Shown piece after piece: positions 34,724 to 34,893 of a stretch of 64,000 nucleotides of DNA. The stretch spans positions 160,001-224,000 of the forward strand of contig JBBCJC010000005.1 of the NCBI GenBank assembly GCA_037189525.1, written 5' to 3'. The notes under the pieces were generated by a model. That model was not told where the DNA came from and made no database searches. It worked only from the letters and a program-made list of their open reading frames with translations. This DNA is from Gemmatimonadales bacterium (GTDB taxonomy: Bacteria > Gemmatimonadota > Gemmatimonadetes > Gemmatimonadales > GWC2-71-9). Both the position numbers and the translations under genes were made by a program. Position 1 is the first letter of the stretch. Each line of letters starts with the position of its first letter.

Positions 34724-34822
34724 ATGAACCGTACTCTCCTCTCCACGATCCTCTCGGCGCCGGCCATGTCGGCGGCGATGATGTGTTGTGGGCCCTGCCG
34801 GGGTCGGAGGATCGGTACGTAG
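34724..34822 (+). CDS. Met/Cys-rich leader peptide (32 aa) of the metY-metX operon
   Basis: MNRTLLSTILSAPAMSAAMMCCGPCRGRRIGT*, with ATG ATG TGT TGT at 34778-34789. Confidence 0.75.
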   Translation: MNRTLLSTILSAPAMSAAMMCCGPCRGRRIGT

Positions 34823-34893
34823 TTACGTCGCCAGCACAAATACGACGCACGCACCGGACCCGGCCCCGCCTCATCGCGGGGCCTTTTAATTTT
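34746..34893 (+). promoter_or_regulatory. Transcription attenuator with alternative 1:2, 2:3 and 3:4 helices
   Basis: 34746-34764 pairs with 34797-34814. 34799-34807 pairs with 34860-34868. 34862-34869 pairs with 34876-34883. Confidence 0.75.
34862..34893 (+). terminator. Intrinsic terminator in the 5' leader of metY
   Basis: Perfect 8-bp stem GGCCCCGC-ctcatc-GCGGGGCC followed by TTTTAATTTT, ending about 20 nt before the metY start. Confidence 0.85.

Follow-up and report, generated by a model that had tools for sequence, protein, structure and literature searches.

Methionine genes are controlled by SAM riboswitches, T-boxes and repressors. A terminator attenuator that reads methionine would be a missing entry among leader-peptide systems, and one in which the sensed amino acid is also needed to start the leader ORF. 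Does the DNA ahead of metY in the 64,000-nt stretch of a Gemmatimonadales genome analyzed here (the window) encode such an attenuator? A sequence-only reading of this DNA had proposed an RNA switch of the trp type around a cluster of Met and Cys codons. We think it very likely that the leader is a ribosome-mediated transcription attenuator that reads charged elongator tRNA-Met and charged tRNA-Cys. The anatomy, predicted folds, conservation and spacing of the leader are what we report here, and the regulation is what they predict.

The metY-metX locus and its leader ORF

The leader lies ahead of two genes on the same strand. metY (34913-36247, + strand) belongs to the O-acetylhomoserine aminocarboxypropyltransferase/cysteine synthase family (TIGR01326, 663 bits against a cut-off of 495). 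It is followed by a gene for a metX-like homoserine O-acyltransferase (36244-37245, + strand) that overlaps the metY stop codon (ATGA). MetX models are the top-scoring ones for this second gene (TIGR01392, 264 bits, E 2e-78), yet the scores are below the model cut-offs, and its product is an alpha/beta hydrolase. Together, the two products make homocysteine for Met. A Shine-Dalgarno-like GAGGA ahead of metY (34904-34908, + strand), as read from the sequence, is outside the hairpins of the switch. Farther upstream, an amidase-family gene (32810-34401, + strand) is located between a small gene (32037-32792) and the leader, and it ends 460 nt upstream. In one of the two closest relatives (L002), a homologue of the small gene directly adjoins the leader, and the lack of an intervening amidase indicates that the neighborhood has been rearranged. 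The DNA upstream of the leader differs among the three members of the window's group (L001, L002 and L003), and the leader itself is retained.

The leader ORF (34724-34822, + strand; MNRTLLSTILSAPAMSAAMMCCGPCRGRRIGT*) has 32 codons, and its stop codon TAG (34820-34822) is in frame with the ATG at 34724. The ORF start and stop in L002 and L003 align with those in the window, with similarity beginning at the ATG; L002 has one additional in-frame Met codon and the frame is kept. A search of NCBIfam with the leader peptide found no family. The peptide contains Met15, Met19, Met20, Cys21, Cys22 and Cys25, of which Met19-Met20-Cys21-Cys22 (ATG ATG TGT TGT, 34778-34789, + strand) are the predicted control codons. 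Met15 and Cys25 as conserved control codons were ruled out by the sequences of the relatives and by a codon-by-codon fold of the window. The Met15 codon (34766-34768) is not conserved, and the Cys25 codon (34796-34798) is past the switch point and absent from the two closest relatives. Because the antiterminator is lost past codon 23-24 (below), Cys25 is not a control codon. The ORF extends 10 codons beyond the Met/Cys run; the median in relatives is about 18.

Initiation is the weak point of the attenuator model, and translation of the leader ORF is something that we infer. There is no Shine-Dalgarno pairing at the leader ATG (+0.2 kcal/mol). A putative -35 box of the leader promoter, TTGACA (34647-34652, + strand), has no clean -10 box after it, and a consensus scan for full sigma-70 promoters returned none. 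This box is 77 nt from the leader ATG, so the window would need either initiation without a Shine-Dalgarno sequence after about 40 nt of transcript or an unrecognized nearer promoter. In L002 and L003, TTGAC or TTTAC is found 36-38 nt ahead of the ATG. Solo leaders (those with no riboswitch-like motif) number 36; a -35-like box precedes an in-frame start by 27-42 nt in 20 of them, as would suit leaderless transcripts, and a Shine-Dalgarno sequence is found in 3. Such a sequence is present in 33 of the 39 leaders behind a variant SAM-II-like motif and in 1 of the 14 behind a typical SAM-II motif. A mini-ORF, ATG-TGT-GCC-TGA (Met-Cys-Ala-stop; 34707-34718, + strand), is out of frame with the leader ORF and ends 5 nt before its ATG. 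The mini-ORF is absent from L002 and L003 and is probably due to chance, although it could supply ribosomes to a start that has no Shine-Dalgarno sequence.

Searches of the locus for known RNA elements were negative. No Rfam family matched the window at its gathering score, and at E values up to 10 there was one chance match, to an lncRNA (E 4.2). No Rfam T-box family matched the window, the SAM-II models (RF00521, RF01726) gave no match there, whether at gathering score or with E relaxed to 10, and SAM-I (RF00162) matched neither the window nor the genome (150 of 307 candidates scored). A 256-nt contig from an RNA run (depth 2.1) spans 34695-34951 across the terminator with 12 differences and one gap. 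It could represent either DNA or the read-through RNA of a relative, it is silent on the start, end and regulation of the transcript, and we do not count it as evidence. In one metatranscriptome run, 5% of words matched.

Competing helices and the predicted switch

The segments named in the sequence-only reading were all recovered at the positions given here, and the three helices that they form are mutually exclusive as it had claimed. Segment 1 (34746-34764, + strand), the long-range partner of segment 2 in the window genome, pairs with 34797-34814 in a duplex of -32.5 kcal/mol. Segment 2 (34799-34830, + strand) is the 5' strand of the antiterminator, and its core (34799-34807), which starts 9 nt after Cys22, can instead pair with 34860-34868 (9 pairs, one G-U). 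This 2:3 helix can be extended by 34826-34830 with 34843-34847 (5 pairs) and by 34813-34820 with 34849-34856; the latter extension exists, but it has an A-C mismatch that had gone unmentioned and thus 7 of 8 pairs. The entire 2:3 duplex is -34.0 kcal/mol. Segment 3, the 3' strand of the antiterminator (34843-34869, + strand), includes the 5' arm (34862-34869) of an intrinsic terminator (34862-34893, + strand) located between the ORF and metY. The terminator has a stem of 8 G-C pairs (34862-34869 with 34876-34883) followed by TTTTAATTTT, with the U-tract at 34884-34893. An additional pairing, of 34790-34798 with the 3' arm of the terminator, had been overlooked.

Segment 1 had been read as the protector of segment 2, and the long 1:2 helix is indeed present in the window, but it is largely genome-specific. 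Segment 1 is weakly conserved, the energy of the helix is halved in L002 and L003, the closest relatives (to -16.5 and -18.5 kcal/mol), and the helix is missing from the window's own centroid fold; we therefore rejected it as a conserved protector. What recurs is a short protector (anti-antiterminator) hairpin (34791-34805, + strand; 34791-34796 with 34800-34805) of -8.4 kcal/mol in the window and -12.2 in L002 and L003. Its 5' arm lies under a ribosome stalled on the Met/Cys run. A third hairpin within the ORF, with a 7-bp core (34758-34774, + strand) extendable to about 34751-34790, competes with segment 1. It is in the centroid structures of L001, L002 and L003, the changes in L002 preserve its pairs, and it is possibly a pause or folding element.

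Folding the window codon by codon shows where the predicted switch is thrown. With a footprint of 10, 13 or 16 nt, a stall anywhere in codons 11-22 gives the 2:3 core a probability of 0.80-1.0; the core is lost from codon 23-25 onward, with a probability of 0 from codon 24-25. The antiterminator is thus kept until just after Cys22, in agreement with the proposal that a stall at Met/Cys favors it. The companion proposal, that a ribosome at the TAG allows termination, holds in that termination is predicted past the run, but the outcome is already decided beyond codon 23-24 and not only at the TAG. Once the terminator is finished, the two structures are at about 50:50 at equilibrium for stalls at codons 20-22. 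Despite different 3'-strand sequences, L001, L002 and L003 all form the 2:3 fold, at -32.0, -39.4 and -32.1 kcal/mol, respectively, and an antiterminator that excludes the terminator was found in the folds of the window and three relatives.

We postulate that a ribosome translates the 32-codon ORF behind the RNA polymerase that is transcribing the leader. When Met or Cys is short, the ribosome would wait on codons 19-22 and cover 34791-34796, leaving 34799 onward free. The free strand would capture the emerging 34843-34868, the terminator would come too late, and metY-metX would be transcribed. When both Met and Cys are plentiful, the ribosome would pass codon 23-24 and cover segment 2. Behind the passing ribosome, segment 2 could refold into the protector, the terminator would form, and the transcript would end at about 34887-34893. 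A leader without a ribosome should tend toward termination through the protector or the long 1:2 helix. The relative weight of Met and Cys in this decision is also a matter of inference.

Met starvation should slow initiation at the leader ORF as well, and thereby favor termination. For a Met attenuator to work, the initiator and elongator forms of tRNA-Met would then have to differ in their charging. Under Met limitation, according to selective-charging theory, the elongator tRNA-Met loses its charge ahead of the initiator tRNA. A compact solo leader makes such a difference in charging testable.

Judged on its own, the window exceeds chance only modestly, and its 2:3 duplex does not exceed it. 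The fold of the 221-nt leader has a z of -1.99, with 5 of 200 shuffles equally good, and a duplex as strong as that between segment 2 and the terminator arm arises in 22% of shuffles and with 28% of 81 unrelated terminator arms. G+C-rich DNA pairs readily, and with window-only tests this weak the terminator might be constitutive, serving the upstream amidase gene or acting as a fixed dampener, with the G+C-rich pairings and the ORF present by chance. Of the alternatives considered here, this is the one to which we give the least credence. The distance to the end of the amidase gene and the persistence of the leader beside differing upstream DNA both argue against it, as do the genomic background and the spacing described below. 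Because the window-only tests are weak, the non-chance case for a ribosome-mediated attenuator comes from the relatives.

Conservation among related metY leaders

We counted metY-like loci with at least 250 nt of upstream sequence (n = 175) and scored as a leader any short ORF that has at least 4 Met/Cys in 8 codons and ends within 330 nt of the gene. A Met/Cys-run ORF was found in 96 of the 175 metY-like genome loci, yielding 89 distinct leaders, a set that includes 6 with 3 Met/Cys admitted by hand and from which one N-terminal artefact (L099) was dropped; these leaders are kin and not independent samples. Metagenome loci passed the Met/Cys rule in 36 of 74 cases. The titled records that bear a leader are from four phyla: Gemmatimonadota, Acidobacteriota, Chloroflexota and Thermodesulfobacteriota. 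Downstream hairpins with at least 5 U in an 8-base tail window accompany 74 of the 89 leaders. The background in the window's own genome is low: among 2496 predicted genes, 35 have at least 4 Met/Cys in 8 codons upstream, 5 have at least 5, and only 2 have at least 5 together with a terminator, one of which is the window locus. This last number is difficult to reconcile with a constitutive terminator next to a chance ORF. The distribution of the gene is patchy. A close metY match (E below 1e-120) is present in only 6 of 21 other genomes searched of the same genus, and these six scatter over a metY tree that is a quick one and not a basis for claims of gain, loss or transfer.

The only feature that the leader peptides have in common is the run. 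It starts anywhere from codon 2 to codon 25, the order of Met and Cys is free, and the flanking peptide is not conserved. The Cys codons of the runs are mixed (139 TGC and 110 TGT), which, together with the free order of Met and Cys, indicates that conservation is at the level of codons and not of nucleotides. An alignment of 43 leaders from all families, in which registration is too poor for pair counts, has only 2 invariant columns.

These features also bear on two other ways in which the same RNA switch might be set. In the first, the nascent Met/Cys peptide would halt the ribosome upon sensing a ligand or the thiol state. TnaC and plant CGS1 are of this arrest-peptide type. Cys-rich CxC and CC motifs do recur in the leaders, and the geometry tests described below are blind to the cause of the ribosome stop. 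However, no residue upstream of the run is conserved, and neither the shifting position of the run nor the variable order of Met and Cys is what an arrest peptide would lead one to expect. In addition, a stall on plentiful product would turn biosynthesis on, which is the wrong sign. We regard arrest by the peptide as quite unlikely.

In the second, the choice between the 2:3 and 3:4 helices would be made without translation, by a riboswitch or by a protein that binds a UG-rich tract, and the ORF would be incidental. The window's lack of a Shine-Dalgarno sequence fits such a switch, and TGT accounts for 44% of the Cys codons in runs compared with 21% genome-wide, which could reflect a UG-rich nucleotide motif. 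The excess of TGT is also compatible with decoding by wobble through GCA, the one Cys anticodon that was found. Moreover, the near absence of invariant columns, the failure to match any Rfam family in the window or SAM-II or SAM-I at the locus, the preservation of start, stop and frame through an in-frame codon insertion, and the Shine-Dalgarno sequences or leaderless-distance -35 boxes of other leaders all speak against such a switch. These observations make a translation-independent switch very improbable.

The position of the antiterminator follows the position of the run in most leaders. In a set of 83 leaders (the 89 minus 6 with a mis-called hairpin), we took the best partner of the terminator 5' arm within the ORF as the start of the antiterminator strand. 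This start is 8-19 nt past the last Met/Cys codon in 68 of the 83, compared with 11.5% of dinucleotide-shuffled ORFs, and the offset is about one ribosome footprint. Spacing so fixed is evidence against a constitutive terminator. Together with the conserved Met/Cys-run ORF and the terminator, it supports the proposed trp-type logic in dozens of divergent leaders.

Folds of these leaders with a stalled ribosome behave similarly. With the RNA masked to 13 nt past the A site and capture of the nascent terminator arm scored when it exceeded 0.5, the arm was captured in 74 of 83 leaders with the ribosome on the first codon of the run and in 77 with the ribosome on the last. Capture fell to 30 of 83 four codons past the run, 18 eight codons past, and 4 at the stop codon. 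Mean capture was 0.78 versus 0.59 for shuffled upstream RNA; it was above the shuffled mean in 73 of 83 leaders and above all 12 shuffles in 34. A stalled ribosome notwithstanding, the finished terminator wins at equilibrium in 73 of the 83; the antiterminator must therefore do its work during transcription, and the switch must be kinetic.

The short protector recurs as well. In 70 of the 83, a 30-nt stretch at its position has a better fold than its own shuffles (mean z -1.0; z < -1 in 44 leaders), and the recurrent short hairpin has its 5' arm directly 3' of the Met/Cys run and segment 2 as its 3' arm. Even when no ribosome is present in the fold, 47 of the 83 leaders, the window included, have the terminator arm captured; the protector model is therefore weak for the untranslated state, and the outcome with no ribosome is poorly predicted. 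In most relatives, a median of about 26 nt separates the end of segment 2 from the stop codon, so that a ribosome at the stop would uncover segment 2 and the protector would have to refold behind it.

Pairing strength is a point against the 2:3 helix, and covariation supports it in one subfamily. The cognate duplex between segment 2 and the terminator arm is in the top 5% of shuffles in only 31 of 83 leaders. It beats the mean of non-cognate arms in 67 of 83 and is in the top 5% of them in only 27, since a purine core is common to the families. Covariation was counted on unfitted MAFFT alignments, with structures read from member sequences and a shuffle control that ignores kinship. In a subfamily of 34 leaders, 87.5% of the cells in the 10-bp 2:3 helix are paired, and two-sided changes affect 4 pairs and 10 cells (2 and 0 of 500 shuffles); these changes are best at slide 0, and 0 of 500 shuffles were as high. 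The terminator stem of the same subfamily has 28 two-sided changes, again with 0 of 500 shuffles as high. The compensatory changes that the sequence-only reading had looked to in the 2:3 helix are thus present in this subfamily, but there is no significance in a subfamily of 29 (70 of 500 shuffles), in which two registers are mixed. The window's own three-member group is too close for two-sided changes in the core. Covariation in these alignments backs the 2:3 helix as support and not as proof.

Apparent exchange with SAM-II and comparison with known systems

The position ahead of metY appears to be shared by two kinds of sensor. In a pattern-based survey of 90 orthologous loci within the order (8 more distant paralogues, with neither element, were left out), a SAM-II-like motif and a Met/Cys leader are both present in 48, the motif alone in 26, the leader alone in 15 (window included), and neither in 1. 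With a leader, a motif or both in 89 of 90 loci, the slot is evidently under sulfur-amino-acid control. The metY family is therefore a natural series within one gene lineage: attenuator only, riboswitch only, and both in tandem. At the tandem loci, the SAM-II-like motif is in front of the Met/Cys leader and has its own terminator. A second Met/Cys ORF behind these upstream terminators was sought in 14 leaders and found in none; 8 of the 14 have a SAM-II-like motif there.

RF00521 is above gathering score in L005, L008, L040 and L051 and below it in L004. A SAM-II-like variant with an inserted hairpin and its own terminator occurs at L009:1118-1210 and L013:1143-1235, in L011, L090, L135, L137 and L165, and in about 30 more loci. 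In the six loci scanned (L009, L010, L011, L013, L014 and L090), this variant is below every Rfam gathering score, and it is possibly an unmodelled form of SAM-II. Other features accompany some of these leaders. In L035, L039, L115 and L116, tandem pyrimidine-rich repeats (TTTCTCTG-like units) lie between the SAM-II-like terminator and a leader ATG that has no Shine-Dalgarno sequence. In L008, L127, L130, L134 and L179-L183, which have the riboswitch only, the DNA about 100-150 nt ahead of the SAM-II motif contains a further conserved stretch that is structured and includes a hairpin.

The window's own genome places the two sensors on different operons. It has three SAM-II matches, two above the cut-off and one below, all away from the window leader (G000:C2:1141326-1141402, G000:C2:1135191-1135266 and G000:C1:803954-804027, all on the - strand). 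Each has a terminator-like hairpin and no Met/Cys leader. By eye, we take the downstream genes to be two homocysteine methyltransferase-like genes and one threonine synthase-like gene. The genome also has a second Met/Cys leader ORF of 27 codons (G000:C2:314795-314712, - strand; L195 about 8795-8620), with antiterminator geometry and a terminator. Its sequence is unrelated to that of the window leader, and it has the same switch point, with a capture of 0.9 to codon 18 and 0.04 at codon 24. It is upstream of a gene for a 717-aa protein and SusC/SusD-like genes and is divergent from a class I/II aminotransferase gene, which suggests that uptake of a sulfur compound is under the same control. 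Elsewhere in the genome, a 15-codon Met/Cys-rich ORF (L196; G000:C2 about 1023000, - strand) has no terminator and no evident sulfur gene, and it is probably a chance occurrence.

Our broader view, which we hold with some reservation, is that these leaders form a Met plus Cys class of transcription attenuator that spans at least four phyla and senses elongator Met-tRNA. Such a class would control a sulfur regulon in one genome (metY-metX and the SusCD-like operon) and swap freely with SAM-II. In many Gemmatimonadales, the two terminators in series would make an AND gate for low SAM and low Met/Cys-tRNA.

The nearest descriptions in print share parts of this design. In the open literature, as far as the available text of the sources goes, there was no Met/Cys terminator attenuator ahead of metY, nor was there one in Gemmatimonadota. 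The accessible portions of four papers touch on neighboring systems. In PMC1262725, Cys leaders are predicted without terminators and no conserved structure was found ahead of actinobacterial methionine operons; PMC11109978 speculates on Met sensing at initiation of the fthC uORF; PMC9373788 describes a terminator behind the SAM-II riboswitch of S. meliloti metA with no antiterminator identified; and PMC2965389, in the part available, names no Met leader. The SAM-II riboswitch (RF00521) itself occupies the same slot in relatives' metY leaders and is absent from the window leader.

Three systems invite closer comparison. In S. lividans, a predicted leader peptide, metL, has a Met/Cys run (CMCRRMC) before metNIQ and is leaderless, and the peptide is described as Met- and Thr-rich in the text available (PMC8079986). 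metL resembles the window leader in its run before methionine genes, and it is leaderless, as many of the solo leaders appear to be. It differs in that an importer is downstream, and the same text reports no typical Rho-independent terminator and calls termination unclear (PMC8079986). In Rhodobacterales, uORFC-8-2 before cysS has tandem Cys codons and an intrinsic terminator and is predicted to be a ribosome-mediated attenuator, according to the available description (PMC8632094). By that description, on which this comparison is made, it differs from the window leader in having Cys only, in controlling a tRNA synthetase and in being alphaproteobacterial. The polycysteine leaderless sORFs of mycobacteria, reported to act in cysteine-responsive translational attenuation (bioRxiv 10.1101/834739), are alike in having a run of sulfur-amino-acid codons in a short upstream ORF. 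In the accessible accounts, their Cys tract pairs with a downstream Shine-Dalgarno sequence and there is no intrinsic terminator (bioRxiv 10.1101/834739; PMC1262725). In contrast, the window leader has a terminator and Met codons, and the metY Shine-Dalgarno sequence is outside the switch; in a fold that included GAGGA, the Met/Cys codons were unpaired with 34904-34908.

The closest likeness is to the classical attenuators (E. coli trpL, Salmonella hisL). As outlined in the available parts of two sources (bioRxiv 10.1101/834739; PMC1262725), these have their ORF, end-product codons, protector, antiterminator and terminator in the order predicted for the window leader, in which the protector is a candidate one, and they likewise precede a biosynthetic operon. 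The window leader differs in that its control codons are Met plus Cys, its ORF runs past the run so that segment 2 is inside the ORF, and in many of its relatives the leader is preceded by a SAM-II-like riboswitch that has a terminator of its own. The print available to us names a Met/Cys leader peptide one time, there with neither terminator nor test, and the mechanism itself is textbook. We conclude that the element is real and conserved and that it is a classical leader-peptide attenuator on every settled feature, with a Met/Cys specificity that has barely been described.
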